Below, piece by piece: positions 8,794-64,000 of a DNA stretch of 64,000 bases; the stretch's first letter is position 1; each line of letters begins with the position of its first letter. The notes below the pieces were generated by a model that searched no databases, was not told the origin of the DNA, and saw nothing but the letters and a program-made list of their open reading frames with translations. The position numbers and the translations under genes are program-made. Source of the DNA: a virus (Duplodnaviria; Heunggongvirae; Uroviricota; Caudoviricetes); IMG/VR virus record IMGVR_UViG_3300035698_035307, positions 87,521 through 151,520 of that record, one strand, 5' to 3'.

Positions 8794-11700
8794 TTATTTT
8801 ATACCTGAAACGTCTTTAGTAGGTCGTTCTGTAATATTTGGAACTACATCACCTTTAAGCGTTTGACGTAAGTCTTCTACTGCAAGTCTAACATCTCTTC
8901 TTGGTATTTTATCGATATTTAAGTTATTGCTTCTATATTTAGCATAAAGTTCAATGTCAAATTTAAACATTGAATCATCTATTAATTTTAAATCAAGTCC
9001 TAATTTCTTAGCATAAGTAACATCTTTTGTTGCATTTGTACTATCACCTGCAACGAATCCAAGACCATCTGTACCAACACCTGCAAAATCACTCATTCTG
9101 TATTGATATACGAGCGGAATTTGTATTGCATTGTTCTGGCCAATTGCAATCTTAATTGAAGAAAGTGCATCATTACCATTAACACTTAAACTATCTTCAT
9201 TCTGTACTGCTATGAATAAGTATGAACCACAACTTCTACCACCTAATAAATATTGGTCGTCAGGTTGGAATGATGTCTTTACAGTTCTTCCTGTAACTAA
9301 TAGACCAGATTCATTATAAAACTGTGCTGCTGGGTCGTAGAAATAACCACATTGTTTTTTACCATTAACATCACTATTAATAAGTTTAGCATGTTTTGCA
9401 TTTCTAAATTCAACTGCACCTTTTGTTAATGTGTAGTTACCTAGTCCATCATTAACATTTGGGTGTAACCAATGTGTTAGAATCTTATCATTATAAGTCG
9501 TGTTAGGAATATATGAACCTAATATTGTAACATTTGGCTTAGTACCGTTATAAGTTCCATTCCAAATATAATCACTTGTATTATCTGGACCTGATAAAGG
9601 TGCTGCAGTATATGGAGTTACTGAAAGTGAATACTCAGCTTGATTCATTGTTGTAATTACAGTACTGTAATCATCGTCAGTATCTAAGAAAAATTCTTCT
9701 GTTCCTGCTACATTGAACCATCGGCCATATAAGTATTGACCATATCTTTGACCACTTTGATAAGGTGAATCTTTTGTAAATATATTCAATGTATTTGGAT
9801 TTGTATATAACATAGGCACTCTATCATATCTACCATAAGTAGTATAATATGAATCACTTGTAACAGATGGGTCGATTGTATCACCGAATAATGTACTTGA
9901 TGATACGAGTTTACTTGGTCTATTACCAGGCATTCTTGATATAACTTCGAGAGGAGTTGCAACTTTATTCTCTATTGTTATGAAATAAGTCTTAGTTACG
10001 ATTGAACCTTTCTTAATGTCTCTGTCTTTAACTTCGTCTACATAATAACCAGCAAAGAATTTGTTAGAGCTATTATTCTCAATAAGTGTTTCAGCACCTG
10101 TATCATCAAGAATCTTAAGTACAAGTTCACCTGTAACTTTATCAATAATTTCTTGTAAGTAGTTAATTCTATTTTCAAATTCTACTAACTTATCAAAAAG
10201 ATTAATTGGCTTTTGTTCTTGTGATAAGAACCCTGAGGCAATCTTTGTTGCATCATGTGCAAAATAATATTCATTAGCTGTGAAAGAACTAGATAAATGT
10301 TCATCTAAACCTTTAGAATTAAGTTCTTCTAGTAATTGTACTTTTGCTAATTCAACATTATTCTCTTCTTTGATTGTTTCTAAATCATTATCTTGAGTTT
10401 TATCGTCTGGGAAGTCAACTGTAATTGAATCTGACCATTCTGATTCTTTCGAATTAGCTGGGAAACCAGCTTCTGATAAAGCTTTGATTCTAATTTCAAC
10501 TGATTCATTCGCTTTAATAGGAATATCTAATTGATTGATATTAACATCGTCAGCATTCTCTACGTTTTGTACAGTCCATTCAAATTGACCTGTAATTTCG
10601 TTCTTAACTCTTTCTCTTGCTTTAGTTCTTAACTCAATCCAGTTACTGAATGTTCCTCTACGTTTTACATCACTATTGTCTTGGAAATTAATCTGAGCAG
10701 TATTATTAGGCTTACCTGTTGTAGATAAGTAACGATACTGAACAACAAATTGTACAATTTCTTGTGGGTTTGTATACTTAGAAGCTTTAGGTTCTGGAAT
10801 TGGCCAGAAACCTCTAACTCTATATTTAGCTGAGATGCCAGTAAGAGAATTTCCTTTAGCTTTATCTACAATATTATTAACTATTGAAGAATACAACTTA
10901 CTAGAATTAGCACGTCTTTCAATTAAACTTTCAAGCTCTTTAGCATCTGATTGCTTTTCAATTGTACTGTCATATTTCTTAGTAGATATTACTGAACGTT
11001 TCTTTTTAATAGCAACATCAGATTCTTTAATTTCTGCAGTTACTTTGTTCTTTTCATCATTAGATTCCTGAACTTCTTTAAATGCATCGTTATCAGTTAA
11101 ATGTTTATTAATTTGAACTACTTCAAAATCTGCAGCCTTAACTGCTGGTGTATTTGGAGTTGCTGCATATAAAGCAGGTGGTATCTTATCTTTAGCAAGT
11201 CCTAAAAGAATTGCACCAATATCAGCTACTTCATTCTTGTAATATGTTTCAAGTGTTTGCACTTGACCATCTGTCTTAAGAATTTCAAGTTCATTTGAGT
11301 AGAATGCTATACCTGGAGACCATAATTCACTTGGAATTTTCGAGATTGGGTCAACAGCTTTAATAAATACTGCAACTTGCTCATCAAAACCTATTGGAAT
11401 TTCAAGTTCAATGTTTTCATCCTGTCCTCTATAGATTCCAATAACATCAGAACCTATATTTACAGCATCAAATCCTTCTACCAACACAAGTTCCACTTCA
11501 TTCGTAGTGCTATCAACAGATTTAACTGTATATCTTGTATTTTTTCTATCATTGTTGACAATTATACTATCTCCAATCTTCAAGCTGATAGAGTCTGTGA
11601 AACCAGACTGTAAATCAGTATATGTTAATTTGTTTAATTTGTATATTTGGCTTCTTCCAGATACTGTTTGCCCATCGACAATAGCTTCAGTTGCTGTATT

Positions 11701-12363
11701 TCTTATTCTTAATACGCTAAAGTTTCCAATATATCTTAACTTTCTTGGTGGAACATCTTGAGTTTCCTCATCAAGAACGAATGATATATTCTGAGCTAGC
11801 ATATCATTAAGGAATGTAGCATATACTATACCGTCTTTTCCTTTATATTTTTCATTAAAATATGAAAGCTTCTTCTCAGTATCAAGTGTTAAAAGATATC
11901 TCTTGGTTATGATTCTTTCTGTGTCTACTGGAATTTGACCTGTAACGTTGATTCCGATATAAAGAAGCGGGTTCATGAACTCTTCAAAAAACCAATTCGA
12001 TTTAGAATTAAATTCTGTCGGTACAGGTACTGCAGTAATAGTATTAGCTGCTGTCTTAAGTTTAGATGTTATCACCTTTCTATAAGTACCATCTGAAAGC
12101 CTAACATTTGTATCTGAATCGCCTGTTCCGGCAAGATTCTGAACGTTAGTATCAATTCTAGCTATCTCATTCTTTAAAAAACCAAAGCTTGGAATTTGAA
12201 TACGTACCAGGTTATTGTTCTGGTCAAACAGGTCTACATCAACTGTTTTCTTATTACTCGTAATTGCTTCATTAAGTTTGTTAAATGTTTCTAAGGCATT
12301 TGTCTCAAGCTTAAGGAACTGAGAAATTAAAGTTGATAATGAATTATTAGTGTTATTACTCAT
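8794..12363 (-). CDS. Large virion structural protein (1189 aa), baseplate or fibre-associated; contains an FN3-like SEWS segment.
   Basis: Long ORF. Contains ...AGFPANSKESEWSDSITVDFP... (FN3/Ig-like signature). Followed by a terminator. Confidence 0.55.
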   Translation of the reverse strand: MSNNTNNSLSTLISQFLKLETNALETFNKLNEAITSNKKTVDVDLFDQNNNLVRIQIPSFGFLKNEIARIDTNVQNLAGTGDSDTNVRLSDGTYRKVITSKLKTAANTITAVPVPTEFNSKSNWFFEEFMNPLLYIGINVTGQIPVDTERIITKRYLLTLDTEKKLSYFNEKYKGKDGIVYATFLNDMLAQNISFVLDEETQDVPPRKLRYIGNFSVLRIRNTATEAIVDGQTVSGRSQIYKLNKLTYTDLQSGFTDSISLKIGDSIIVNNDRKNTRYTVKSVDSTTNEVELVLVEGFDAVNIGSDVIGIYRGQDENIELEIPIGFDEQVAVFIKAVDPISKIPSELWSPGIAFYSNELEILKTDGQVQTLETYYKNEVADIGAILLGLAKDKIPPALYAATPNTPAVKAADFEVVQINKHLTDNDAFKEVQESNDEKNKVTAEIKESDVAIKKKRSVISTKKYDSTIEKQSDAKELESLIERRANSSKLYSSIVNNIVDKAKGNSLTGISAKYRVRGFWPIPEPKASKYTNPQEIVQFVVQYRYLSTTGKPNNTAQINFQDNSDVKRRGTFSNWIELRTKARERVKNEITGQFEWTVQNVENADDVNINQLDIPIKANESVEIRIKALSEAGFPANSKESEWSDSITVDFPDDKTQDNDLETIKEENNVELAKVQLLEELNSKGLDEHLSSSFTANEYYFAHDATKIASGFLSQEQKPINLFDKLVEFENRINYLQEIIDKVTGELVLKILDDTGAETLIENNSSNKFFAGYYVDEVKDRDIKKGSIVTKTYFITIENKVATPLEVISRMPGNRPSKLVSSSTLFGDTIDPSVTSDSYYTTYGRYDRVPMLYTNPNTLNIFTKDSPYQSGQRYGQYLYGRWFNVAGTEEFFLDTDDDYSTVITTMNQAEYSLSVTPYTAAPLSGPDNTSDYIWNGTYNGTKPNVTILGSYIPNTTYNDKILTHWLHPNVNDGLGNYTLTKGAVEFRNAKHAKLINSDVNGKKQCGYFYDPAAQFYNESGLLVTGRTVKTSFQPDDQYLLGGRSCGSYLFIAVQNEDSLSVNGNDALSSIKIAIGQNNAIQIPLVYQYRMSDFAGVGTDGLGFVAGDSTNATKDVTYAKKLGLDLKLIDDSMFKFDIELYAKYRSNNLNIDKIPRRDVRLAVEDLRQTLKGDVVPNITERPTKDVSGIK

Positions 12364-18432: not shown

Positions 18433-20268
18433 TTAAGTTAATTTTTTCTTGTTCGCTGTTTGTATTCTGTTCGAGATTGTCTGTGTGATTTTCTCTTTAA
18501 AATAAACTGTAAGTGATGAAGGTTGTGCTTGCTTTGGTTCTTCGTCATAATAAGTACCATTTCTATCATCCCAACCACCTCTAATTATTGGTAATTCGTT
18601 TTTGCCAATTGTAATATCACCAAATTCGTCTAAACCTAAGTTAGGGTCTTCACCAGTTGCTAAAGTTATCTTAGTTTTTATAATTTCTTTATTGAAAAAT
18701 ACGTAACGTTTCTTATTACCTTCACCTTCTTGTAAGAAGGGTGTAGTAGGTTCTACCTTTGTAGTTTCCTTATAGTAATATCCGTTTCTAATTGCTTCTT
18801 CATTTTCTTCTGAAGTAAAATATACATTTACTGAATCAATACCATCTATTCCTTCAATTATTGCAATCAGGTCAGACTTAGGTATCTTATCTCTTCTATT
18901 AACTGTTAAGAAGTAATCATTTAGTTGTGTTCTTATCTCTTTAGATATAGTTTCAAGTTGGTAGCCATCGAAATATCTAAGTATCACTGTACATGCATAT
19001 TTCTTAATTATTGGGTCAACAATTTCTACTTCACTACTTAAACCTTCTTGGCCACTTTCATTAAGAACAGAATAAACCATTTTCGTTTCATCTGAATCGA
19101 GTGTAAATTCGTCTTGAGGAATTGTGAAGTAATCGTTTCCTGAGGTCAGTTTAGACTTAACGTCAGGCAGTAAGAACAAGTAGACGACATTATCATCATC
19201 TAAATACTCATCGTCATACGTGTTGTATGCTTCTATGTACGAGAGATTATTATATCTGCTTAAGAAGTACTGGTAGTTTTCAGGGGCCACTAAAACGAAT
19301 GATTTACTCGCTAAAGGTGCAATGATTTTAGTGAACTGAGTATTTTCTGCATCTGCTCCAAATTTTGGAGTAGTAACAGCTTCTGTCATCATAAATTCAT
19401 TAAGGTCAACTTCTTCTCCTAGTGAATCTATACCACTATCTAAATATTCGAATGATAAGAAGTCTGAGTCACCAATAATTGTACCAACAGAACCATTTGT
19501 TAAAATATATTCTACTTCAATTATAGCACCGATTCCAGGTACCATACCGAAATAACCATTACCAAAGAATATATCTAAACCACCAGAAAGTCCACTTTTA
19601 ATTAAGCATCCTTTTGTATCGTTCTTCATATCATATAATGAATCATATGTAGTCCATAGTTCGCTATTAACAAATACTTTAACATTATAATGTTCAGGTT
19701 GACCACTGATGTTAATATTGAAACTTTGCATTGATTGACCAGTTCCTATGACTTTCTGTGATTCAATTTCACCTTGAATGATTTGTGCATTTATAAAGTC
19801 TACGCTATTCTTATCAATTTTTATAAAGTCTTGGTTAAATCTTATTAAGTACTTAAGGTTATTGTTCTTACATTTAAGTTTTGTATTATTCTGCAGTAAA
19901 AGATATGAACCAATAAAGTCACTTTCTTTACCAGGTTTGAATTTAAAGCGTACTTCACCTAAAGCTGAAATTGCACGAGTAGGATTATGACCAGCTAAAA
20001 CAGCTAACCCATAAATAGATTCATTTGTAGTTGCTGTAAGTATATTTTGTTCTAAGGTAGCATCTTCTACATAGAACATATTAAATTCAAACAACTCAGC
20101 CATAACTTTCAGTATCTGAGCATACGGTGATGCAACACTGAAAATACTTGATGATTGACTATAAGTTCTACTTAAATAAGTCGTGACATCTTCATATATC
20201 TCATTTGATAATACTCTTACTTTACTTAAAAAGAGTAACGGTCTAGGTTTTTTTAACGTTTCAGCCAT
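18433..20268 (-). CDS. Baseplate J-like protein (P2 gpJ / T4 gp6 family), 611 aa.
   Basis: N-terminal ...SPYAQILKVMAELFEFNMFYVEDATLEQNILTATTNESIYGLAVLAGHNPTRAISALGEV... resembles the Baseplate_J N-terminal region. Sits directly after a gp25/gpW-like gene, the conserved myovirus order. Confidence 0.5.
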   Translation of the reverse strand: MAETLKKPRPLLFLSKVRVLSNEIYEDVTTYLSRTYSQSSSIFSVASPYAQILKVMAELFEFNMFYVEDATLEQNILTATTNESIYGLAVLAGHNPTRAISALGEVRFKFKPGKESDFIGSYLLLQNNTKLKCKNNNLKYLIRFNQDFIKIDKNSVDFINAQIIQGEIESQKVIGTGQSMQSFNINISGQPEHYNVKVFVNSELWTTYDSLYDMKNDTKGCLIKSGLSGGLDIFFGNGYFGMVPGIGAIIEVEYILTNGSVGTIIGDSDFLSFEYLDSGIDSLGEEVDLNEFMMTEAVTTPKFGADAENTQFTKIIAPLASKSFVLVAPENYQYFLSRYNNLSYIEAYNTYDDEYLDDDNVVYLFLLPDVKSKLTSGNDYFTIPQDEFTLDSDETKMVYSVLNESGQEGLSSEVEIVDPIIKKYACTVILRYFDGYQLETISKEIRTQLNDYFLTVNRRDKIPKSDLIAIIEGIDGIDSVNVYFTSEENEEAIRNGYYYKETTKVEPTTPFLQEGEGNKKRYVFFNKEIIKTKITLATGEDPNLGLDEFGDITIGKNELPIIRGGWDDRNGTYYDEEPKQAQPSSLTVYFKEKITQTISNRIQTANKKKLT

Positions 20269-52212: not shown

Positions 52213-52905
52213 TTAGTTTGACATTTTATCCTTATATTTCCATTTATTATATCTCTTAACAACTTCAATCAGGATTTTATTTCTAACAATGTCACTTTCA
52301 TGAAATTCATGATTTGCAATACCTTTAACTCCTTCAAGCATAGTTATAAAATCAGGTAAACCAATTTCTTTAAATTTGATATCATATTGGCTCACATCAC
52401 CAGATACAATAACTTTAGTATCTTTACCCATTCTTGTTATAAAAAGCATTAATTGTTTAAATGTGCAATTTTGTGCTTCGTCTAATATCATTACGGCATT
52501 ATCAAATGTAGCTCCACGCATGTGAGCTAGTGGGCGATAATCTATCTGACTTACACTTTCTAAGAATCCTCTTGATTGCGTTCCACAAATTTTATCAAAA
52601 TTAGTTCTGAATGTGTCAATGAATGGTGCAATCTTCTCGGCTACTTCTCCAGGTAACGCACCAAGCTTCTCTCCAGATTCTTGGATAGGCTTTGTACAGA
52701 TAATCTTATTAATATTATTGTTCTTATCTGATAATAACTTTAAAGCTGTGTAAGCTGCTGTGAACGTTTTAGATGTTCCAGCTGGGCCAAAACAAAACGT
52801 AATATCGTTTTCCCATATTTTTTGTGAATAAGTTTTTTGTGTCTGTCTAAGCTGAACGTGTTTTATTTCGTCATACTTAATTTGAGGGCTTTCTTTCTTG
52901 CTCAT
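52213..52905 (-). CDS. phoH: PhoH-like ATPase (230 aa).
   Basis: Walker A CFGPAGTSKTFTA. Size and overall pattern match phage PhoH. Confidence 0.75.
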   Translation of the reverse strand: MSKKESPQIKYDEIKHVQLRQTQKTYSQKIWENDITFCFGPAGTSKTFTAAYTALKLLSDKNNNINKIICTKPIQESGEKLGALPGEVAEKIAPFIDTFRTNFDKICGTQSRGFLESVSQIDYRPLAHMRGATFDNAVMILDEAQNCTFKQLMLFITRMGKDTKVIVSGDVSQYDIKFKEIGLPDFITMLEGVKGIANHEFHESDIVRNKILIEVVKRYNKWKYKDKMSN

Positions 52906-53363
52906 TAGTCTCCGAATTCGATTATTTTTGTTTTAAGGTCTCTTAATACGGCACACTTCTCATAATCTTCTACTTCAATAAAATAGTTCATTATTCTGTC
53001 TATCGCCATACTGCGATGTCCTTTTCCTTTAGGTACTTCTATGACAGTATCACCATCTTCAAATATAATAAAGATATCTACTGTACGTTCTTCATTTCGA
53101 GTTAATGAATCATAAGAAGCATTCATCAAGTAATTCATGTCATGCTTAGGTAATTCTTCCTCGTCCATAAAATCATCTTTTTTTAACTCTCCATCCAGTT
53201 GTTTAGCATAAACGTCTCTTAGAATTTCATTTATTCTTCTGGGTCTTCTTTTATTTTCCATTTTATAAAATTTAAGATGCTGAATCTCCGAACATCTTTT
53301 GTTTATATACTGCTTTAATTTTTTGCTTTCTTTTTTTAGCTGATGGCTTTGTGAACTTTTCAC
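52905..53363 (-). CDS. Hypothetical protein (152 aa as drawn; more likely starts at the internal Met, about 53261, to avoid a 92-nt overlap with the bS21 gene).
   Basis: The ORF overlaps 53272..53469 in another frame. The internal start MENKRRPRR... would reduce the overlap to 10 nt. Confidence 0.35.
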   Translation of the reverse strand: MKSSQSHQLKKESKKLKQYINKRCSEIQHLKFYKMENKRRPRRINEILRDVYAKQLDGELKKDDFMDEEELPKHDMNYLMNASYDSLTRNEERTVDIFIIFEDGDTVIEVPKGKGHRSMAIDRIMNYFIEVEDYEKCAVLRDLKTKIIEFGD

Positions 53364-53469
53364 GTTCTCTAAGTTCCTTTACTTGCTTAGTCTTAATAAC
53401 CTTACGTTTAAATTGCTTTAGAGCTCTTTCGAGACCACCTTTGCCAGGTTCTACTATAATTTTTAACAT
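53272..53469 (-). CDS. rpsU: Ribosomal protein bS21 homologue (65 aa).
   Basis: MLKIIVEPGKGGLERALKQFKRKVIKTKQVKELREREKFTKPSAKKRKQKIKAVYKQ follows the bS21 pattern (ALRRFKR...REREFYEKPSxxRKRK...A). Confidence 0.7.
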   Translation of the reverse strand: MLKIIVEPGKGGLERALKQFKRKVIKTKQVKELREREKFTKPSAKKRKQKIKAVYKQKMFGDSAS

Positions 53470-54279
53470 TTAATCTACTTTAATTTTTTTATTTACGTAT
53501 ACCCTTAGTCTATCTAAAGCTTTACGTTCCTTATCATCGAACTTATGCATAATTACATTTATCACGATATAAAAATCACCAAATCTTTTGGTACCGAATA
53601 TTGGCATGCCTTTGTTTGGTACTCTAAGTTTCTGTCCTTGTTTTGTTCCCTCTGGGATTTTAACCTTTAACTTACCTGCAAGTGTTTCTACTTCAACTTC
53701 TATTCCTAATAGACTATCATACAATGATATTTCTACATTATAGAGTAAATCATGATTAATATTTTTGTAAAGGGGATTGTTTAAAACAACGATATGTATA
53801 AATGCATCACCAGGTGCAGCCATTTCATTAATAGTACTCTTAAATCCTTTTCCGCGAGCTCTGAAATTATGACCACTGTGTGTACCAGGTTTAATATCCA
53901 ATGAAAGAGTTTCACCTGTCGGTAACATAAATTCCTTTCTACACCCAGAATAAGCTTCTTTTAATGTAATTGCAAGATTGACACGAATACTTTCACCTTG
54001 AACTGGAATTTCATATTCACCATAGAACTGATTCCAAACGTCATGCATATTAGTACCTGTATGCCTGAATGGGTTCGGGTTGTCGTATGCTGTTCGTTTT
54101 TCTTTATTACTTAATACATTATAAGCTTCAGATACTTCCTTAAATTTCTCCTCAGACTGTTTATTATCTGGATTTTTATCAGGGTGTAATTTCTTAGCTA
54201 GCTTACGATAAGACTTTTTAATCTCGTCATCAGTTGCTGTACGTTCAACTTCTAATATCTTATAATAATCTTTATTCAT
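53470..54279 (-). CDS. DnaJ/CbpA-like J-domain co-chaperone (269 aa, no zinc-finger domain).
   Basis: J-domain: [35 protein letters not shown] (HPD motif). DnaJ C-terminal beta-domains follow; there is no CxxCxGxG repeat. Confidence 0.8.
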
Positions 54280-55050: not shown

Positions 55051-55413
55051 TTAATAGCGATGAGAATCACCACTACCTGATTTACGATTTTTGTTTAAAT
55101 ATTTTGATAGGCCTGATTCACCGTTAGCAAAATCTTGATAACTTGTAAAATCTCCTTCTTTTTCTTCTCTATCTGTAGGATGAACATATTTTATGTCCTT
55201 GTATGGATTTGGTTCTCCACCTTCTTCTTTAATCTTCTTTGCTAAATAATCATTGAACTGTTTAATACTTCCCCTGAAAAATCTAATATCTTCTAAGTCT
55301 TTATTTTCTTTAGATGCTGGAGTTTCAGCTTCTGCAGAAGTTTCAGATGGTAGATTCTCTCTACTATTCTCATATAAAAATTCATCAAATGTAAGTATGT
55401 TCTTAAATGTCAT
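55051..55413 (-). CDS. Hypothetical acidic protein (120 aa).
   Basis: ORF only. Confidence 0.35.
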   Translation of the reverse strand: MTFKNILTFDEFLYENSRENLPSETSAEAETPASKENKDLEDIRFFRGSIKQFNDYLAKKIKEEGGEPNPYKDIKYVHPTDREEKEGDFTSYQDFANGESGLSKYLNKNRKSGSGDSHRY

Positions 55414-55936
55414 TGAAGTTTTGGTAATTTTTTAGCTCAAAGCTTTCGTTAGATTTATATATCGCATCTAACATATCCAATAACTTCTGCATAGGACGTG
55501 AAGCTCGCTTCCTTGCTTCTTTAAATGTAATAAATCCAGCCCAGTCAATTTCAACTATACCTTCACTATTCGGTTTAAAAAATGACTTATCTATCACTTC
55601 TTTCTTTAAGCCTATTTCTTTTATATCATCGATCTCAACAATATAAAAAGTCAAATCTTTCTTACCATATTTATTAGCTGGGTACATGTACGTATACGGA
55701 CCAGAAGTGACTTGTGATTTTTTTATTTTAATTCCTATTTCTTCTTCTGTTTCTCTCATAGCCCCTTGCCATTGAGTTTCACCTGGGTCGATTAAACCTT
55801 TAGGAATACTATATGAACCATACCATTTACTGCCACCAGGATGACCCATCAAAATTTTGTCTCCCATTTTAATTACTATACCAGCTGAATGTTTCATATG
55901 TTTTAATTTTTTTATAATCGTGTAAGAGAATTTCAC
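55403..55936 (-). CDS. NUDIX hydrolase (177 aa as drawn; the true start is probably an internal Met).
   Basis: Nudix box GLIDPGETQWQGAMRETEEEIGI (Gx5Ex7REUxEExGU). The first 23 codons overlap the upstream ORF 55869..56261. Confidence 0.8.
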   Translation of the reverse strand: MKFSYTIIKKLKHMKHSAGIVIKMGDKILMGHPGGSKWYGSYSIPKGLIDPGETQWQGAMRETEEEIGIKIKKSQVTSGPYTYMYPANKYGKKDLTFYIVEIDDIKEIGLKKEVIDKSFFKPNSEGIVEIDWAGFITFKEARKRASRPMQKLLDMLDAIYKSNESFELKNYQNFNDI

Positions 55937-56542: not shown

Positions 56543-56575
56543 AAAAAAAACCGGAACTGATGTAGTCCCGGTTTT
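56543..56575 (-). terminator. Terminator-like hairpin after the flotillin gene.
   Basis: A8 (56543-56550), stem ccgg...ccgg extended as aaaaccgg / ccggtttt with a 13-nt loop, then a T-run. Bidirectional in form. Confidence 0.5.
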
Positions 56576-56594: not shown

Positions 56595-58187
56595 CTACTT
56601 ATCATCTTTCTTTTCGATTTTAGCTTTGGCTTCTTCGATTACTTTCTTAGCATCGATTTTACCTTCTACATTACCTTTTTCAGCAAGCTTCGCTCTTTCA
56701 CCAGCACCTTGCATGAATTGTGGCATCTCAGCTCCAGCTTGTTCGAACATCTCTTTTAATGGTGGTACCATTCCAAGTAGTCCTTGCATGAAGCCAGCTG
56801 TTGATGTTTGACCATCTGAACCGCTTCCAGAACCTGAGTCCCAAACTGTTACTTTATCAATCTTCACATTCTTGATTGCTTCTACTTGAATCTTGATTAA
56901 TTCTGGTAATTTATCTGCAATCATTAATTGTACCGCTTTGTCACTTGAACCAGCTGCTTGTACTAATCTATCAAAACCGTCTGCTTGTTTTGTAAGTATC
57001 TCATTGATACCTTTCGCTTCTGCTTCCATCATCGCGAACTTAGCATCAGCCTTACCTTGTGCTACTCTACGGATTGCTTCTGCTTCTGCTTCTGCATTGA
57101 TTTCAATTTCTTCCTTAGCAATTTGTGCTGGGATTACAGTATCTGCATACTGTGAGGCTTTATCTTTCTTCGCTCTTTGCTTTTCAGCTTCTTCCTGGGC
57201 AATATAAGATTCTTTGTTAGCTTCTGCTTTCTTAACATTGAAAGCTGCAACTGATTTTCTTTCAGCTTCTGCTTCAGCTACTTTTCTTGTAGCAGTAGTA
57301 TTTGCAATTGCGACTTGTGAAGCATTTTCACCTTCAATCGCTGTAGCATTCATAGATGCTGTTGCAACTCTTTTTCTTTGTTCAGCATCTGCTTCACCAA
57401 TTTCTGATTTAGATATTGCTTCTGCAACTTGAACACGCTTGTCTTGGTCAGCTGCTGCTTCTCCAATTTCTGCTGTAGCATGAGCTGCTGCTACTTCAGT
57501 TCTCTGTGATTTCTCAGCTGTTGCAACTCCAATTGCACCACTTCTGTTTTTATCTGCAACAGATACTTTCGCTTCGTTGATAGCTGCGGCTGAAGCTTCC
57601 TTACCAAGAGCATCAATATAACCAGACTCATCTGTTATATCTGTGATGTTTACGTTGATAAGCTTTAAACCAATCTTCTGTAATTCATCTTCTAAGTTTT
57701 GTTGAATATTTAATAAGAACTTATCACGGTCAGCGTTAATTTCTTCAATATCCATTGTTGCAATTACAAGTCTCATTTGACCGAAGATGATATCTTTTGC
57801 TAGACCAGCAATATCAGTTCTTGAAAGGCCAAGTAGTCGTTCTGCAGCGCTTTCTCTTACACCTTCTGATGCAGATACTGCTACTGTAAATGTAGATGGT
57901 ACATCAATACGAATATTCTGTTTTGAAAGTGCATTCGTTAGATTTACATCAATTGCAATTGGTTTTAAATCAAGAAATTCATAATCTTGAATAACAGGCC
58001 AAATAAACTGTGCGCCACCATGAACTACTTTCGCGGTTGCTGTTTCTCCTGAAGCCTTCTTCCCGGTTTTACCGTAAATAACCATCAGTTTGTCCGAAGG
58101 ACATCGTTTGTATCGTTTTACCATCGCTACGATAAAGGCAAATGCTGCAACTACTGCAACTCCAATAATAATTAAATTGTACATCAT
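56595..58187 (-). CDS. Flotillin-like SPFH/Band-7 protein (530 aa).
   Basis: N-terminal TM helix, SPFH domain, then long Ala/Glu-rich flotillin repeats (AEAEAERK..., EINAEAEAEAIRRVAQGKADAKF) and a C-terminal tail, like bacterial YqiK/FloT. Confidence 0.8.
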   Translation of the reverse strand: MMYNLIIIGVAVVAAFAFIVAMVKRYKRCPSDKLMVIYGKTGKKASGETATAKVVHGGAQFIWPVIQDYEFLDLKPIAIDVNLTNALSKQNIRIDVPSTFTVAVSASEGVRESAAERLLGLSRTDIAGLAKDIIFGQMRLVIATMDIEEINADRDKFLLNIQQNLEDELQKIGLKLINVNITDITDESGYIDALGKEASAAAINEAKVSVADKNRSGAIGVATAEKSQRTEVAAAHATAEIGEAAADQDKRVQVAEAISKSEIGEADAEQRKRVATASMNATAIEGENASQVAIANTTATRKVAEAEAERKSVAAFNVKKAEANKESYIAQEEAEKQRAKKDKASQYADTVIPAQIAKEEIEINAEAEAEAIRRVAQGKADAKFAMMEAEAKGINEILTKQADGFDRLVQAAGSSDKAVQLMIADKLPELIKIQVEAIKNVKIDKVTVWDSGSGSGSDGQTSTAGFMQGLLGMVPPLKEMFEQAGAEMPQFMQGAGERAKLAEKGNVEGKIDAKKVIEEAKAKIEKKDDK

Positions 58188-58242: not shown

Positions 58243-58821
58243 CTACTTTTGTTTCACAACCATTAGATGACCTCTAATGTCTGTTACTTCTACTGTTGCA
58301 CCTCTTGGTATAAATCCAGTATCTGATATTACATCAACTTCTCGAATTGCTCCACCATTAAGTACATTAGCTTTTCCTTTTCCACCTTCTTGAACTGCAA
58401 GGGTAACAGTACCAGTCTTACCAACTGAATGAATTAGTTTGGGACTGCGGTCAACTGCAAGCTTTTTCATACCATACATCAACATCGTCATCATAACTAC
58501 CATACTTAAACCTGCTAAGGTTGCCCATAGAGTAGTATATCCTAAACCAACATCTTGATTAATACATGCAATTCCAGTCCAACTGAACATTACAAAGAAA
58601 TTCATTAAGTTCTTAAATGAGAACCAACCGAACGAAGCTCCTGCATCTCCTTGTGCATTATCTACGTCAGCATCAAAATCTGTATCTGTGTCTAAATCAC
58701 CGTCACTATCTAATCCTAAGAATATCATCATGAACTGTATCAAAAATACTAGCGATGTGGGTATCGCTATAAACCAAAGCACCTTTTCAAATCCTGTTAG
58801 TGCATCAAAAAATTCCATCAT
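58243..58821 (-). CDS. NfeD-like membrane protein (partner of SPFH proteins), 192 aa.
   Basis: Multiple TM segments plus a C-terminal OB-fold signature ...GKTGTVTLAVQEGGKGKANVLNGGAIREVDVISDTGFIPRGATVEVTDIRGHLMVV... Gene order NfeD then flotillin is as in bacterial yuaF-floT and yqiJ-yqiK. Confidence 0.65.
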   Translation of the reverse strand: MMEFFDALTGFEKVLWFIAIPTSLVFLIQFMMIFLGLDSDGDLDTDTDFDADVDNAQGDAGASFGWFSFKNLMNFFVMFSWTGIACINQDVGLGYTTLWATLAGLSMVVMMTMLMYGMKKLAVDRSPKLIHSVGKTGTVTLAVQEGGKGKANVLNGGAIREVDVISDTGFIPRGATVEVTDIRGHLMVVKQK

Positions 58822-58886: not shown

Positions 58887-59939
58887 CTAAAATTCCCCAT
58901 CAATTATGTTCAGAAAGTTTTCTCTAATCAGTAAAGCGTTATTTGAACCTACTTTCTTAGTTATAAACTTCTGTTCCTTTTTATCAAGCTTCATAAAATC
59001 TTCTCTGTTATCTTTCATAAAATCTTCGATAACATCTTTGTTCATATTACCCATAAGCATACCAAAATCCTTATCTGTAATAGTTCCAATCTTAGAGATA
59101 ACATTCTTCAGCCTATTCTCTGTCACATGACTGTCCATGATATCAAACAGCCTCTGAACCTCTTCAGAAACAATAACTTCCTCTTTTGGAACTCTATCTT
59201 TCTTAGGCTTCTTTGCAACTTCTGCAAATAGTTCATTCTTGTTCTTAAGAATAACTCTACTACCTGACCACATAAAATCTGGTTGTACAGGAATAATTAC
59301 ATTACCTTCACAGATATTCTCTACATCAATTTCTGGTAGACCTAATCTAGCAGGTATTGTAGACTTGTAAGCATTCTCATAAGCTAGACATTCTTCTAGC
59401 GTTCCTCTGAATAGAGGTTTCGTTCTAAATATATTACCAGCATCACATAATGTCGCGAATGTATCATAATCTACAAGTTCGCCATTGATTTTAATATCAA
59501 ATGCGTAAATATGATTATCAGGTGAGTAAAATACGCCTTTCTGACATCTTACTGCATGTGGACTTTTTGCTACTTCTGGATGGGGGTAAGAACCGCCAAA
59601 GATTTCACCATAAATTGTAAGTGTCTCAAGCTCAGGAGCTTCTTCTCCTTGTAGTGCAAGTTGATTACGCATAAGAGTAATAATATTCCAGATTTTTTCA
59701 ATGCCTGCTTTATTAGCTTCCATTACTACACCTGAATTATTAAATCCTTTCGGGTCATCAACAAAACCAGAACGCTTACCAGCTTTTAATTCATTACCAT
59801 CAAACCAAAGTGAAAAATTAGAGCCGTGTATTTTCTCGGTCACAACCCATTCGCCACCAGATTTACCTTGTTCTGCAATCTGATTTAGGAACTTAGTCCT
59901 ATAACTGTTTTCTATACTTGAAAATTTTGTAAATTCCAT
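58887..59939 (-). CDS. RNA ligase 2 (T4 Rnl2 family), 350 aa.
   Basis: N-terminus MEFTKFSSIENSYRTKFLNQIAEQGKSGGEWVVTEKIHGSNFSL is near-colinear with T4 Rnl2 MFKKYSSLENHYNSKF...GGEWVAREKIHGTNFSL (KxHG motif I). The C-terminal ...NVISKIGTITDKDFG... matches the Rnl2 C-domain. Confidence 0.85.
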   Translation of the reverse strand: MEFTKFSSIENSYRTKFLNQIAEQGKSGGEWVVTEKIHGSNFSLWFDGNELKAGKRSGFVDDPKGFNNSGVVMEANKAGIEKIWNIITLMRNQLALQGEEAPELETLTIYGEIFGGSYPHPEVAKSPHAVRCQKGVFYSPDNHIYAFDIKINGELVDYDTFATLCDAGNIFRTKPLFRGTLEECLAYENAYKSTIPARLGLPEIDVENICEGNVIIPVQPDFMWSGSRVILKNKNELFAEVAKKPKKDRVPKEEVIVSEEVQRLFDIMDSHVTENRLKNVISKIGTITDKDFGMLMGNMNKDVIEDFMKDNREDFMKLDKKEQKFITKKVGSNNALLIRENFLNIIDGEF

Positions 59940-60727
59940 TATATTTCAAAAAATTTAGATGTGCTATACTCTGGAGTTTCTCCATAACCTGCATAACCCA
60001 TTTGATTACTAACTACTTTTGTTCCATTTATTTCTGCATCAATATTCCTATGTGTATGACCATAAATCCAATGACTGATATCAAAATCGTGAATCCAATC
60101 AAAAAGTTCTACTACAAATCCAGCGTTAATTGGACTACCTTTAAAATCAGGATGATTAACCATCTGAGTAGGAGCATGATGCGTAACTACTACATTCTTT
60201 TCTCCTTTATGTTCTTCGAGTGCATCGTGCAAAAATCCTCTTGCTTCAAGGTGTAGTTTATTATACCTCATAGAGGTCAAAGGTTTTGGGTATTTTTGAT
60301 ACTCTTCCCAATACTTAATTACCCTGAAGTCGTTTAATCCTTTTGTGACATTCGTTATGTCATTATAATTACTCAAAGAAGACCACAGTGTAGTACAGAT
60401 AAAATTAACACCTTCAAATTTTACTATATCATTGTTAACTAACAATACATTTTCCCTAATCTTTTTATTGAGTTTAGGCTCTTTCAATAATTTATAATCT
60501 GCGTTATAATATTCATGGTTGCCAGGTATCATTATTACTAATTTCCACTTTTCAGAGAAATAATCAAAAATCTGGTCACTGTAATGTGAATCATTCATTT
60601 TTGTGATATCACCAGCAAGAACAAGTACATCACCGACAGGGATGATAGGATTATCTGATATCTCATCTCTGTTGGTGTACATTTCTAAATGTAAGTCTGA
60701 CGCGTATTGTATTTTTAATTTTGCCAT
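59939..60727 (-). CDS. Calcineurin-like metallophosphoesterase (262 aa); candidate 2',3'/3'-phosphate end-healing phosphatase.
   Basis: MPP motifs: SDLHLE (DxH), LAGDITK (GD), GNHEYY (GNHE), GHTHRN (GHxH). Confidence 0.75.
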   Translation of the reverse strand: MAKLKIQYASDLHLEMYTNRDEISDNPIIPVGDVLVLAGDITKMNDSHYSDQIFDYFSEKWKLVIMIPGNHEYYNADYKLLKEPKLNKKIRENVLLVNNDIVKFEGVNFICTTLWSSLSNYNDITNVTKGLNDFRVIKYWEEYQKYPKPLTSMRYNKLHLEARGFLHDALEEHKGEKNVVVTHHAPTQMVNHPDFKGSPINAGFVVELFDWIHDFDISHWIYGHTHRNIDAEINGTKVVSNQMGYAGYGETPEYSTSKFFEI

Positions 60728-60764
60728 AGTCTAATATACTAATTCTTTTTCAGAACCCAAAGTT

Positions 60765-61598
60765 TTAGGGCATTAAATTTAATAAAAAGTCTCTATCTTG
60801 AGATATGATAGGAATATCTACTGTTTCCCAAGCTGAACGTGTTATGCCAGTTGCTCTTGCAGAAATATCACCAGATGACATCATATCATAACTCTGTACA
60901 ACAACGTTGTCAACTCTTGTAATCTTCTTCACAAAACCACCACGTTTGAAACGTATTGGCTCATCATTCCAGTTAATTTTCTTTTCAAGCATTAACATAT
61001 CCTGCATGTCATTTGTCTTCTTGCCGTGTAATTCATTTTGGCTGAAGTACGCTTGAGCTAACATACTAATACTATTCCTTGTTGCATCTTGTTGTCTCCA
61101 AAGAAAATAGTTTACAACTTCTTCTTGGTTTGGAATTACAAATACTCTTGCATCAAATTCCGCAACTCTCATTGTACTTAATACTTTTGAGATATCAGTA
61201 CCGGGTTCTTGATTCCCTATAGCTCTAATATAGCGTAGTTGATTAAACTTACTCGTTGCCATAGAAGCAGCTACTGATACCATCTTTTGGATTTTATTAC
61301 CAAACCAAGCATCTGTCTCTAGCTTATCGTAGTCTGTTAATAGAAGTGATATTTCATCACTCTGAACATAACCACATTTACAGCCCTGAATATTCTTACA
61401 AAGATATTGAGTTGTTGCATCCATGTCATCATTTAATCCAGTATCATACGGTTTTTTAAGGCCACGAGTGTACGTGTGAAATGCCTTACCGTCAAGTCTG
61501 ATGATAATGTTTGTTCTGCGGGGCATAGTATGGTTAAATATACCTTCATAGAATGTTTTCATTCTGTCCCCTAAAGCGTCTTTTACTTTTTTTGCCAT
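60765..61598 (-). CDS. Thg1-like protein (tRNA-His guanylyltransferase family; 3'-5' nucleotidyltransferase), 277 aa.
   Basis: ...DRMKTFYEG...NIIIRLDGKAFHTYTRGLKKPYD...GYVQSDEISLLL...KMVSVAASMATSKF...FDARVFVIPNQEEVVNYFLWRQQD... is colinear with the Thg1 signatures VVVRLDGRNFHRF...KPND, GQSDEYSFVF, FDGRVVVYPS...YLSWRQAD. Confidence 0.7.
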   Translation of the reverse strand: MAKKVKDALGDRMKTFYEGIFNHTMPRRTNIIIRLDGKAFHTYTRGLKKPYDTGLNDDMDATTQYLCKNIQGCKCGYVQSDEISLLLTDYDKLETDAWFGNKIQKMVSVAASMATSKFNQLRYIRAIGNQEPGTDISKVLSTMRVAEFDARVFVIPNQEEVVNYFLWRQQDATRNSISMLAQAYFSQNELHGKKTNDMQDMLMLEKKINWNDEPIRFKRGGFVKKITRVDNVVVQSYDMMSSGDISARATGITRSAWETVDIPIISQDRDFLLNLMP

Positions 61599-61600
61599 AA

Positions 61601-62092
61601 TTATTTTAATTTACTGATGCTAAAATCTTCATTTAACTGAAGCTGATGGCCTTTCCATTTAGTCGGATTAACATCGAGCCATTCTTTAATATCTTTTTTT
61701 ACTGTTTTAATTCTATTTGCATTCCAGTCTTTAACTAAGTGGGCCAATACGTATTGCTTTGCTTTAATTTCATATGCTTCAGTATCAATATTCCATTTCT
61801 TAGCTTCAGATATAGCATACATCTCTGCAAGGTATTCATTAACATAAGATATCTCATGCCAACCTTCAGCGATGTGACCAATTTCATGTAGACATATTAA
61901 GAATGCTGTCCTGTTTTTAGGTACAGGAAGCATCACAGTCTTGCTGTCTTGGAATGCAATATAAGAAGCAGCATTCAAACTTTTATACCATTTCTTAACG
62001 TGAATGTCAAGACGTCGTATGTATAATCTGACTACTGCTTCATAAAAATCTGCTGTGTTATCGTATAAGTCTCTAGGACAATATTTGTTCAC
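61601..62092 (-). CDS. HExxH zinc-metallohydrolase-like protein (163 aa).
   Basis: LICLHEIGHIAEGWHE contains HExxH followed by a third His six residues on (metzincin/ImmA-like spacing is imperfect). Function unassigned. Confidence 0.35.
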   Translation of the reverse strand: MNKYCPRDLYDNTADFYEAVVRLYIRRLDIHVKKWYKSLNAASYIAFQDSKTVMLPVPKNRTAFLICLHEIGHIAEGWHEISYVNEYLAEMYAISEAKKWNIDTEAYEIKAKQYVLAHLVKDWNANRIKTVKKDIKEWLDVNPTKWKGHQLQLNEDFSISKLK

Positions 62093-63099
62093 TAGTTTTT
62101 ATATTTTGTAAACCATAACTTGAAATGTGATTTAACTTCTTCAGGAGTACTGTTAAGCATAAATCTCCTGTAAGCTTCTCCGAGAAAATTTTTATACCAA
62201 CCAATAACTTCACCTAATTGCTTACCTTTAAGATATGGATATAATTCCATAATAATACGACCATTAAATTTAGTTTTAATAAGCTGGTTCTCACCATCAG
62301 TCTTCTTAATCTTAGCAAGCTTTTCTAGAAAATTAGCTTCAGGAAAATACTCGTTAATCATTTGAATGTAATCTTCTTTATTCTTAGAAAATTCAAACTT
62401 ACTGATTGGTTTATGTTCATTAATATAAGTAAGGAATTGTTGATAAGTATCTCTCTTTGCATTACGCTTACGGTCAATATGATTAAGATTGTCCATCATG
62501 TAGTTTTCACCGTTAAAGTACTTACTACCAATGATATAATCAAAAATCTCTTGAACTGTATCAAATGTTTGAAGATATCTGTCATAATCAAGGCCAAGAA
62601 ATTCAAAAATCTTAGAATTATCTAAGCTGATTGTAATATCTTCACTAAGTCTACCATCATAATTTCTAAATGGATAAACTAAACCTTGAAAACCATATTT
62701 AAGTCCAAACTTATGAGCAAGTTTACCCATTAAGTTACCAGTTGGGTCAAAGTCAAAGAAACATTTTGCAGTTTCCCATCTGCTAGTTGGTTGAGGAATA
62801 ATATCAATTTGAAAAGCTTTGTATTCAAAACTAAAAACACCGCCGTTACAATGAACTGCGTGAACATCTTTAAATTCTGATTGAATTTTTTCTTTAATGT
62901 TTCCTAAGTTTCCTGAATTAAGAATTAAAAGGTCCATGTCACCATGACTCTCTTTTGTATTATATGCTCGAACATTATGAACTTCTGTATTAAAAAGTTT
63001 CTCAATACGAGGTTTAACTTCCTTTACGATTTCATTATATTCTGGAGTATCATAACGTCTTGTTTCAATACCATACTGCTTCATTGCTCTTCCACCCAT
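62092..63099 (-). CDS. Hypothetical protein (335 aa) with a possible minimal nucleotidyltransferase motif (hGDxD).
   Basis: ...NTKESHGDMDLLILNSG... resembles the Pol-beta-superfamily hG[GS]...DxD active site, but the upstream Gly-Ser is not canonical. Weak call. Confidence 0.25.
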   Translation of the reverse strand: MGGRAMKQYGIETRRYDTPEYNEIVKEVKPRIEKLFNTEVHNVRAYNTKESHGDMDLLILNSGNLGNIKEKIQSEFKDVHAVHCNGGVFSFEYKAFQIDIIPQPTSRWETAKCFFDFDPTGNLMGKLAHKFGLKYGFQGLVYPFRNYDGRLSEDITISLDNSKIFEFLGLDYDRYLQTFDTVQEIFDYIIGSKYFNGENYMMDNLNHIDRKRNAKRDTYQQFLTYINEHKPISKFEFSKNKEDYIQMINEYFPEANFLEKLAKIKKTDGENQLIKTKFNGRIIMELYPYLKGKQLGEVIGWYKNFLGEAYRRFMLNSTPEEVKSHFKLWFTKYKN

Positions 63100-63124
63100 T
63101 GTGAATTGTTTTAATGATTAATTA

Positions 63125-63182
63125 TAGGGTAAATATATAATAAATTCCTCAGAATCCAAAGTATTATCTGAGATTTACCCTA
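63125..63182. promoter_or_regulatory. Nested inverted repeat (10-bp outer arms tagggtaaat / atttacccta; 6-bp inner arms ctcaga / tctgag) in the intergenic region between the kinase and the 335-aa gene.
   Basis: Outer arms 63125-63134 and 63173-63182. Inner arms 63148-63153 and 63167-63172. Overlaps the kinase stop codon. No U-tract. Confidence 0.4.
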
Positions 63183-63606
63183 ATTTAATGTCAAATCTTT
63201 CTCTCATTCTTTCTAATGCTACTTCTGGTACACCGTGAGCGTTTACGCCACCATGTCTATTCTCAGTAATCAAAGAAACAACAATATAGTTATGCTTCTC
63301 AGCAAGTTTATAATAGTCTTTCAATTCTTTTTGAGTAGTAGAAGTATTGGCTACAAATACCTTCTCAGTACCTTCAATCATAGCATTCTCACATTTAGTT
63401 TGACATGCTTTATGTGCTGCACCTAATTTAGAAGCATCAAACATATATTTGCCACCTCTCATAAAATAGTCATCTGCAGTACAGACTGGGTATTTATAAG
63501 TCTCACCACCAAATTCAGAAGCTACTCCTGAATCAGCTAAAGCTTCAGCTGCTGTAGTTTTACCAGAACCTGGTATTCCTCTTATAATAAATAAAATATT
63601 TTTCAT
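63175..63606 (-). CDS. P-loop 5'-OH polynucleotide kinase (Pnk-like, AAA_33-type), 143 aa.
   Basis: Walker A ILFIIRGIPGSGKTTAAEALA at the N-terminus, as in the T4 Pnkp kinase domain (ILTIGCPGSGKSTWA). Small size and context within the RNA-repair cassette. Confidence 0.65.
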   Translation of the reverse strand: MKNILFIIRGIPGSGKTTAAEALADSGVASEFGGETYKYPVCTADDYFMRGGKYMFDASKLGAAHKACQTKCENAMIEGTEKVFVANTSTTQKELKDYYKLAEKHNYIVVSLITENRHGGVNAHGVPEVALERMRERFDIKLG

Positions 63607-63622
63607 TGTTTGTTATTTTAAG

Positions 63623-64000
63623 TTAACGTCCACCTGCATCACACAAGTTAAACTCCATAATTCCTTTAAAGTCAGGTAAGTTTTCAAAAGCTTCTAACTT
63701 AACCTTCTTCTTAATTTGTCCAGACTTGAACAAATGTGCTTTCATGTGATTTTTACACATTGCGTAAACTGTATCTTTATCAATACCTAAATCCATGAAC
63801 TTATCAATATGAGCATCAATGTATTTCAAAGAAACAATCTCATGTCCATAATGAGTAATTCTTTCTACACCATTCTTAACTCTTAATCTTGTAGTCTCTG
63901 GTTTTCCTAAATCATGGAAGATTGCAGAAACTAAAAGGTTAATATCACCTGGATAGTGAGTATCAGCAAAGTTGAAAACCAACTCAATGTGATTGTATAC
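63623..64000 (-). CDS. HD-domain phosphohydrolase, N-terminus outside the window (partial).
   Basis: ...THYPGDINLLVSAIFHDLGKPET...HYGHE... (H...HD...H motif). The ORF stays open to position 64000; the 63982 'start' in the ORF track is a TTG, not ATG. Its position directly upstream of the Pnk gene mirrors the HD-Pnk fusion order of Runella slithyformis. Confidence 0.6.
   Translation of the reverse strand, partial: VYNHIELVFNFADTHYPGDINLLVSAIFHDLGKPETTRLRVKNGVERITHYGHEIVSLKYIDAHIDKFMDLGIDKDTVYAMCKNHMKAHLFKSGQIKKKVKLEAFENLPDFKGIMEFNLCDAGGR

Follow-up and report, generated by a model that had tools for sequence, protein, structure and literature searches.

A candidate phage operon for RNA end repair that contains a bacterial-type Thg1-like protein

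We examined a block of genes at one end of a 64,000-nucleotide stretch of tailed-phage DNA (Caudoviricetes; IMG/VR record IMGVR_UViG_3300035698_035307, positions 87,521 to 151,520; the whole stretch is hereafter called the window), for which a first-pass annotation had proposed a seven-gene cassette that repairs broken RNA. In order of transcription, the block encodes an HD-domain phosphohydrolase, a small P-loop kinase, a nucleotidyltransferase (NTase), a protein with an HExxH motif, a Thg1-like protein (TLP), a calcineurin-like metallophosphoesterase (MPP) and an Rnl2-type RNA ligase (Table 1). All seven open reading frames (ORFs) are present on the minus strand, where that annotation had placed them, and because they are long and have strong profile matches they are not chance ORFs. 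Its domain calls (Thg1, Rnl2, HD, AAA_33 and MPP) all hold, the HD match lying just under the gathering score. The window is AT-rich (about 32% GC), carries nearly all of its genes on the minus strand, and has one ORF matching a baseplate wedge subunit, which points to a myovirus-type phage. Because megablast of the region against 50,697 phage records returned no match, we consider the phage to have no annotated close relative and to represent an unsequenced lineage. A source contig from public assemblies (L004), 100% identical to the window, extends the locus past the window edge.

The seven genes are co-oriented and tightly packed. Two junctions are overlaps of 1 nt, one of them between the start of the HExxH ORF and the stop codon of the NTase gene, and the others are gaps of 2, 16, 37 and 75 nt; an intergenic terminator scan within the seven-gene block found none that was convincing, in keeping with their predicted co-transcription. 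Strong terminators occur nowhere but before and after a run of 12 genes, and because these bracket it we predict a transcription unit of about 8.6 kb, running from about L004:4120 to 12720 and comprising three small ORFs, the seven genes, and genes for an NfeD-like membrane protein and a flotillin-like protein. The boundaries first drawn around the cassette were therefore wrong, in that the predicted unit has 12 genes and includes the NfeD and flotillin genes downstream. A promoter scan returned counts equal to the shuffled expectation.

Table 1. Positions of the genes and other features discussed in the text (window coordinates unless a contig is named).
Feature	Position	Strand	Matches and remarks
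Run of very large ORFs (1671, 1189, 1005, 948, 1189 and 1424 amino acids)	3679-47914	-	mostly without PHROG function
Baseplate wedge homologue	18433-20268		
PhoH-like ATPase	52213-52905	-	
Ribosomal protein bS21	53272-53469	-	PF01165 2.5e-13
DnaJ	53470-54279	-	J and C-terminal domains
Nudix hydrolase	55403-55936	-	just downstream of operon
Intrinsic terminator	56547..56575	-	12-bp stem then T-run; strongest in region; closes unit after flotillin
SPFH/Band-7 flotillin-like protein	56595..58187	-	PF01145 Band_7; NF058507 FloT 1e-50; last operon gene
NfeD-like membrane protein	58243..58821	-	PF01957 E 1.2e-4, below gathering score
Rnl2 (T4 Rnl2-family RNA ligase)	58887..59939	-	TIGR02307, PF09414, PF18043, phrog_548
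MPP (calcineurin-like metallophosphoesterase)	59939..60727	-	PF00149, phrog_1649
Bacterial-type TLP	60765..61598	-	PF04446, phrog_4717, 4KGK
Small gluzincin, 163 amino acids	61601..62092	-	HExxH and downstream Glu
Pol X-like (Pol beta superfamily) NTase, 335 amino acids	62092..63099	-	phrog_24943, AlphaFold model
Small P-loop kinase, 143 amino acids	63175..63606	-	AAA_33, phrog_2071
HD phosphohydrolase, cut by window edge	63623..64000	-	PF01966, phrog_6931, CCA-enzyme HD regions
Full HD gene, 158 amino acids	L004:5168-5644		end at about window position 64099
Upstream terminator bounding unit	L004:4099-4119		outside window
PTH2-like peptidyl-tRNA hydrolase, 98 amino acids	L004:3259-3555		upstream of operon
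tRNA(CUA) gene	L004:2604-2676 (about window 66591-66663)		outside window; Rfam 74.7 bits
NAD-synthesis/salvage genes adjoining Rnl1	L004:2-1397; L005:575-2087		
TLP-HD-MPP loci	L018:4471-7190; L021:10001-12129; L023:10001-12156; L025:4412-6534; L014:2198-4501		
Mobile-element sites at ligase genes of relatives	L033:560-3313, 9537-11747; L034:3728-4561; L035:3295-4128		
NTase fusion, 701 amino acids	L099:10001-12106		no Pfam match

The last of the seven genes encodes a T4 Rnl2-family RNA ligase, the predicted sealer of nicks in duplex RNA. It passes the TIGR02307 equivalog model with 211.8 bits (cut-off 197.15), the alignment running colinearly over residues 3-347 of the protein and 1-326 of the 326 model positions. 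The protein also exceeds the gathering scores of PF09414 (4.6e-18) and PF18043 (2.6e-23) and matches phrog_548 (3.4e-67). Its motif I reads EKIHGSN (residues 35-41); in the Rnl2 family the lysine nucleophile of motif I lies in the pattern KxHGxN. The MPP (PF00149 1.1e-13, 52.5 bits against a threshold of 21.5; phrog_1649 2.5e-47) carries all five metal-binding motifs (SDLH, AGDIT, GNHE, THH and GHTH), and the DxH/GD/GNHE/GHxH set said to be complete is indeed seen in the sequence.

The assignment of the fifth gene to the Thg1 family stands as well (PF04446 4.9e-29, 101.3 bits, gathering score 29.2; phrog_4717 2.5e-89) and can be refined to the bacterial TLP branch: the best PDB match is the Bacillus thuringiensis TLP 4KGK (4.3e-61 over residues 7-223), whereas eukaryotic Thg1 is matched only at about 1e-10 to 4e-10. 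The segment WRQQDATRNSISM aligns with the TLP motif and not with HINNLYN, the eukaryote-specific anticodon-recognition motif of Thg1 (PMC6471195), and both the TLP-type motif WRQQDA(S/T)(K/R)NSISM and the catalytic region are conserved between the window protein and 4KGK. The product is a bacterial-type TLP, predicted to be a templated 3'-5' RNA polymerase. Repair of tRNA 5' ends by this bacterial family has been demonstrated in vitro (PMC3061083, PMC6471195), and TLPs and Thg1 have maturation and editing roles in eukaryotes (PMC6471195, a review with no mention of phages).

The neighbours of TLP genes elsewhere are informative. When 105 ORFs beside the TLP genes of 14 non-redundant loci were scanned in bulk against Pfam, the commonest neighbours were Metallophos (5), NT5C (4), HD (4) and an RNA-repair "Swiss-army-knife" HAD (2). 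In a second lineage of large phages, represented by four loci (L018, L021, L023 and L025), the TLP gene is followed after 13 nt by one for an HD protein and then by one for an MPP; a further locus, L014, has in place of the HD protein a DUF5662 protein that carries an HD-like motif. BLASTP found no detectable similarity between the HD and MPP proteins of the second lineage and those of the window, and the L018 MPP, of still another type but similarly placed, is unrelated to the MPPs of its sister loci. That the same classes recur with non-orthologous members points to a link of TLP, HD and MPP by function and not by shared descent, in what looks like a recurrent association formed by non-orthologous displacement. 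We know of no earlier description of this association, with the proviso that Burroughs and Aravind (2016) was not checked directly.

The first two genes of the seven would supply end healing. The HD protein has an FHDLGK motif and matches the HD regions of CCA-enzyme models weakly (TIGR02692 1.6e-5; PRK10885 8.5e-5); by tblastn, the phage sequences that match it best are HD domains encoded in genes labelled "CCA tRNA nucleotidyltransferase" or multifunctional tRNA nucleotidyl transferase, the alignment covering 91% of the query at 34% identity (E 1e-11). We regard it as Cca-type and as a candidate 2',3'-cyclic phosphodiesterase or 3'-phosphatase. The kinase matches AAA_33 (2.4e-6, 28.4 bits; gathering score 27), phrog_2071 (6e-36) and phrog_505, a "polynucleotide kinase" family (2.8e-7). 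Its own family, present in 619 phage records, adjoins an Rnl1-type ligase and a phosphoesterase in Escherichia coli phage MiataMamis and in the Pseudomonas Pakpunavirus PsIn, so that two unrelated phage groups share a kinase-ligase-phosphoesterase neighbourhood, and we consider it a candidate 5'-OH polynucleotide kinase. A fused HD-Pnk of the Runella type can be dismissed, the kinase gene being a separate ORF that begins 16 nt after the HD gene; the two products nevertheless each match one half of the phage family phrog_6931 (343 positions; HD at positions 24-155, 2e-13; kinase at 186-291), which fits the earlier idea of an HD-Pnk split into two genes.

On balance we think it probable that the block is a phage RNA end-repair operon, acting most likely on tRNA, and that it is a clade-specific assembly of a modular type already described. 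The HD protein, kinase, TLP, MPP and Rnl2, five of the seven, can be assigned with reasonable support to a predicted RNA-repair pathway on the evidence of the kinase-Rnl1-phosphoesterase neighbours, the Cca-like HD and the TLP-HD-MPP order in the second lineage, and for these five the context evidence favours the RNA-repair cassette first proposed; it does not do so for the NTase and the HExxH protein, which show no such linkage elsewhere. The HExxH protein, with the NfeD/flotillin pair, may be a co-transcribed passenger or accessory factor of the predicted unit. We draw the steps of the pathway from the biochemistry of the families concerned (T4 Pnkp, Rnl1 and Rnl2; the HD domain of E. coli Cca; bacterial TLPs, PMC3061083 and PMC6471195). 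Damage by host nucleases or toxins would leave 2',3'-cyclic-phosphate or 3'-phosphate and 5'-OH ends, or would strip terminal nucleotides. The 3' phosphate would be removed by the Cca-type HD protein, the MPP or both, and the 5'-OH phosphorylated by the small kinase; where a helix (the acceptor stem, for example) has lost 5' nucleotides, the TLP would restore them in the 3'-to-5' direction with the opposite strand as template; Rnl2 would seal nicks in duplexes, and an Rnl1 encoded upstream would seal breaks in the anticodon loop. Peptidyl-tRNA would be freed by a PTH2 also encoded upstream.

A number of findings, set out in this and the following three paragraphs, weigh against so unified an interpretation, and they begin with the NTase. 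It has no Pfam match, and its profile matched no chain among PDB sequences. In its family, which numbers more than 220 "hypothetical" proteins or clusters, many of them on phage contigs of 100-670 kb (up to 669 kb), residues G53, D56 and D99 never vary, and D54 is conserved to at least 90%. An AlphaFold model made from 32 homologues (predicted local distance difference test score, pLDDT, 94) has a palm fold with three catalytic carboxylates, as in the Pol beta superfamily, and its best structural matches are the DNA polymerases Pol lambda, beta and mu and the Pol X of African swine fever virus (ASFV). The alignment covers about 150-165 N-terminal residues, corresponding to palm and thumb; the C-terminal 170 or so form a family-specific helical domain, and the full Pol X architecture is not realised, the 8-kDa and fingers domains being missing. 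The enzyme is not an RlaP or a class II CCA-adding enzyme, because neither PF10127 nor PF01743 matches it. Around 80 NTase-anchored loci (L038-L117) we counted two Thg1, one Rnl2, four Rnl1, four kinase and one HD gene, numbers that, we infer, roughly equal chance placement in genomes of 150-400 kb. An HExxH gene occurred in none of the 80, which disposes of a conserved NTase-HExxH pair. Of the claim of an NTase-like protein, then, the palm with its catalytic carboxylates stands, and the role in RNA is unsupported, given the DNA polymerase matches and the lack of linkage to RNA repair elsewhere; fill-in or extension of 3' ends by this enzyme, attractive as it may be, is a guess. Within 10 kb of the NTase, a PTH2 gene was present at 15 of the 80 loci.

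These structural matches, together with the "DNA polymerase" label that both PHROG (phrog_24943, 1.2e-31) and GenBank annotators give the NTase family, are what recommends a reading of the block as a DNA end-repair or "ribo-patch" module resembling base-excision repair (BER) or non-homologous end joining (NHEJ). The NTase would fill gaps, possibly with ribonucleotides, the kinase and phosphoesterases would heal DNA ends, and Rnl2 would seal nicks with a 3' ribonucleotide; polynucleotide kinases and HD-Pnk accept both DNA and RNA, and an Rnl2-type ligase needs only a 3' ribonucleotide at the nick. We nevertheless regard this as very improbable, the TLP, the Cca-type HD and the nearby Rnl1, PTH2 and tRNA genes all indicating RNA, the NTase lacking the two polymerase domains and aligning over some 160 residues, and its family being unlinked to ligases elsewhere. 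One could also envision the NTase as part of RNA repair itself, with TLP, NTase and Rnl2 carrying out templated, bidirectional gap filling and nick sealing of tRNA duplexes after HD, MPP and kinase had cleaned the ends; in a damaged acceptor stem, the 5' strand would be rebuilt by the TLP and the 3' strand by the Pol X-like enzyme. We hold this to be improbable. If true, it would amount to an RNA counterpart of the base-excision or NHEJ repair of DNA, would serve phage survival against acceptor-stem nucleases or 3' CCA modifiers rather than against anticodon-loop toxins, and would provide the first physiological function, outside eukaryotic organelles, for TLPs of the bacterial type.

The HExxH protein matched nothing in the profile libraries. 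It has only four close homologues, and an exhaustive profile search retrieved 182 distant ones; residues H69, E70, H73 and E86, a gluzincin signature, are invariant across 46 homologues, 6 of which show weak Peptidase_M78 matches. Because of the signature and these matches the protein appears metallopeptidase-like, distantly similar to M78/ImmA-IrrE, and is no obvious RNA enzyme; compared with ImmA/IrrE (M78), CapP and ArdC-type zincins it is without a helix-turn-helix or sensor partner domain and without Pfam-level membership. Linkage to repair genes does not extend to its distant members, whose genes sit among unannotated small ones, and on account of these neighbourhoods and the NTase-locus counts, neither the HExxH protein nor the NTase has an independent link to RNA repair. 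Three distant matches to the HExxH profile, P0187 (1569 amino acids), P0220 (624) and P0232 (1178), each contain 8-10 separate matched stretches, which could be tandem small-zincin repeats or low-complexity artefacts. Among the five enzymes assigned to repair, the HD protein scores 20.5-21.3 bits with PF01966 (E 3.5e-4 to 6e-4; gathering score 22). The kinase has no relative among PDB sequences and aligns by BLASTP with T4 PseT through the P-loop alone (residues 1-20, E 8e-4), and for that reason appears not to be a close relative of T4 Pnk; of the 5'-OH polynucleotide kinase first proposed, what stands is a P-loop kinase with a ligase association elsewhere. The MPP leans towards the CpdA or class-III phosphodiesterase type, its nearest NCBIfam models being TIGR03729 and CpdA, both weak and far below their cut-offs; its sole PDB sequence match is 6UNC (E 0.048), and we found no homology that would make it a healer of the lambda-phosphatase/Pnkp clade.

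These enzymes may instead form a loose neighbourhood of independent accessory genes in a plastic region rather than one pathway, with Rnl2, kinase and HD in RNA repair, the MPP degrading cyclic-nucleotide defence signals, the NTase acting on DNA, the HExxH protein serving as an anti-defence or regulatory protease, and flotillin and NfeD at the membrane. To the CpdA lean of the MPP and the unannotated neighbours of distant HExxH genes can be added that the conserved neighbours of the NTase are uncharacterised proteins and not repair enzymes (a 110-amino-acid protein upstream in 20 of 64 loci, a 295-amino-acid protein downstream in 13), and that the region also carries bS21, DnaJ, Nudix, PhoH and NAD-salvage genes. 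Gene order is kept in three close-relative contigs (L033, L034 and L035; 63-77% protein identity), in which the flanks (Nudix, DnaJ and bS21) are syntenic too, and the seven-gene order held only there. Even in these relatives a GIY-YIG/SegE-like homing endonuclease or small ORFs lie between the MPP and Rnl2 genes, and the NfeD and flotillin genes, kept together in L034 and L035, are missing from L033. Within 10 kb of 19 Thg1-anchored viral loci (45-56% identity) there were weak PncA and NadE matches, one weak Rnl1-like match and no other cassette homologues (ligase, kinase), and the full set never recurred in these or the 80 NTase loci. The closest sequenced MPP, in megaphage LR756500 (46% identity), has no other cassette gene within 12 kb, and in Vibrio phage nt-1 the MPP gene and rnlB lie about 50 kb apart. 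Conservation of the seven genes as a unit thus failed as a general claim, applying to close relatives alone. The reading as independent genes is opposed by the recurrence of TLP-HD-MPP with non-orthologous parts, by the adjacency of kinase, Rnl1 and phosphoesterase in unrelated phages, and by the overlapping or very short junctions of a block bracketed by terminators; we judge it unlikely, if still the weightiest of the three rivals, ahead of maturation of the phage's own tRNAs (see below), with the DNA ribo-patch last.

Mobile elements target the ligase genes of the relatives: Rnl1 is split by an intein (Intein_splicing matches), and the L033 Rnl2 gene is interrupted by about 1.2 kb just after the active-site lysine motif. 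A group I intron was considered for this interruption and set aside, no Rfam match reaching the gathering threshold.

Downstream of Rnl2, the predicted unit ends with the NfeD and flotillin genes; NfeD is the usual partner of SPFH/Band-7 proteins. A possible role for the flotillin-like protein is that of a scaffold. In bioRxiv 10.1101/312249, which cites Burroughs and Aravind (2016), Band-7 proteins are tied bioinformatically to RNA ligase systems and proposed as scaffolds. The block does not follow the Band-7 systems with an associated tRNA-like RNA: tRNA and Rfam scans near 56.5-58.9 kb found no such RNA beside the Band-7 gene, and the only tRNA lies about 8 kb upstream, beside Rnl1.

Past the window edge, in the upstream direction, lie in turn the three small ORFs of the unit, the terminator, a 136-amino-acid ORF, the PTH2-like gene, a 146-amino-acid ORF and the tRNA gene, and beyond this the genes for Rnl1, a nicotinamidase-like isochorismatase and NAD synthase. 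The Rnl1, about 3 kb away, is 28% identical to T4 RnlA (E 1e-11). The tRNA(CUA) is of the amber-suppressor type, called "tRNA-Pyl" by ARAGORN; its D-arm and anticodon stem look like those of tRNA-Trp. Its gene lies 13 nt downstream of that for Rnl1 and does not encode the CCA. This tRNA is a possible substrate in a further reading, that the enzymes serve in maturing or maintaining tRNAs of the phage itself, the TLP fixing or extending 5' ends while the HD protein with an NTase services 3' ends. The Cca-type HD, the translation-centred surroundings with bS21 and PTH2, and the eukaryotic maturation and editing roles of TLP and Thg1 (PMC6471195) agree with such a function; two RNA ligases and a 5' kinase would be superfluous for ordinary maturation, however, and there are no tRNA genes within the 64-kb window, and we consider this reading quite improbable. 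TAG recoding, which a CUA tRNA might imply, is unsupported in this region, since TAG still ends 11 of the 53 window genes, four cassette genes among them (TGA ends 3), and there is thus no wholesale recoding.

The proximity of genes for NAD (nicotinamide adenine dinucleotide) synthesis and salvage to Rnl1 has a parallel: in PsIn and MiataMamis (L118 and L119) the kinase-Rnl1 pair lies beside NAMPT, PRPP synthetase, Sir2 and macro-domain genes, which suggests that RNA repair is recurrently paired with NAD replenishment. Further downstream in the window, bS21 directly follows a full DnaJ and precedes a PhoH-like ATPase, and the DnaJ-bS21 pair is also found in relatives L034 and L035. One of the very large ORFs carries a head-decoration-like segment at its C terminus, and the run of them probably represents the structural module of a novel myovirus lineage.

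The operon can be compared with several known systems. T4, which counters the PrrC anticodon nuclease with PseT/Pnkp and RnlA and also has RnlB/Rnl2, shares with it the logic of healing before sealing (3'-phosphate removal and 5' phosphorylation), and like T4 the window phage has both an Rnl2 equivalog and an RnlA homologue (28% identity). Unlike T4 it has no bifunctional Pnkp; healing would be split among an AAA_33 kinase, an HD protein and an MPP, where T4 uses a HAD phosphatase domain. In T4 pseT and rnlA are near neighbours, whereas the ligase inside the present operon is Rnl2, and the window phage adds to the T4 set a TLP, a Pol X-like NTase, a gluzincin and NfeD/flotillin. The HD-Pnk of Runella slithyformis joins an N-terminal HD 2',3'-phosphoesterase to a 5'-OH kinase and clusters with an ATP-dependent ligase (PMC6097658). 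By gene order and phrog_6931 the block resembles this HD-Pnk/ligase/Tpt1 cluster (Munir and Shuman 2017), with HD followed by kinase near a ligase, but the activities lie on separate polypeptides, there is no Tpt1 or MTase-HIT partner, and the HD is nearest to the HD domains of CCA enzymes. The window TLP is a clear homologue of B. thuringiensis 4KGK, differing in being phage-encoded and embedded in a healing and sealing operon, and the NTase differs from family X polymerases, including the minimal ASFV enzyme, in lacking 8-kDa and fingers domains and in having a unique helical C-terminal half of about 170 residues.

The closest precedent is the modular syntax of RNA repair (ligase, NTase, kinase/phosphatase and Band-7 scaffold) outlined in Iyer et al. 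2021 (PMC7824862), which cites Burroughs and Aravind (2016). The complements listed there for large phages include Rnl1, Rnl2, RtcB, polynucleotide kinases, HAD, calcineurin-like and HD phosphatases, RlaP, CCA NTases and PTH2, and Thg1 is called "sporadic" (PMC7824862); RlaP has since been characterised biochemically (PMC12776372). The window block has all classes of this syntax, namely an ATP-grasp-type RNA ligase, NTases, a kinase, phosphatases and a candidate SPFH/Band-7 scaffold. RlaP was not found (no PF10127 match), the NTase slots being taken by the TLP and the Pol X-like enzyme, and the TLP, in contrast to the sporadic Thg1 of that account, lies inside the operon. Sub-modules recur in distant genomes (kinase-ligase-phosphoesterase; TLP-HD-MPP) and the whole set does not. 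That the organisation, together with Thg1, HD, calcineurin-like, PTH2, Rnl1 and Rnl2 components, was already in print (PMC7824862) weighs against the novelty claimed by the first-pass annotation, and the system cannot be called previously undescribed. What is new is the particular assembly: a TLP inside the operon, split HD and kinase genes with a Cca-type HD, a Pol X-like enzyme in the slot usually held by RlaP, and a gluzincin and an NfeD/flotillin pair in the same predicted transcription unit.

The value of these findings is limited in that the concept is published, the argument is purely genomic and bystanders may account for two of the seven genes. Phage repair of tRNA damage inflicted by host defences, as in the contest of T4 with PrrC, is nevertheless newly relevant, with many tRNA-targeting defences now being found. 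The analysis also flags two well-populated, uncharacterised families of large phages, the Pol X-like NTase and the small gluzincin. The operon and the TLP-HD-MPP association of the second lineage offer concrete proteins with which 3'-5' polymerisation could be probed in counter-defence RNA repair, and so bear on the role of bacterial-type TLPs in vivo.

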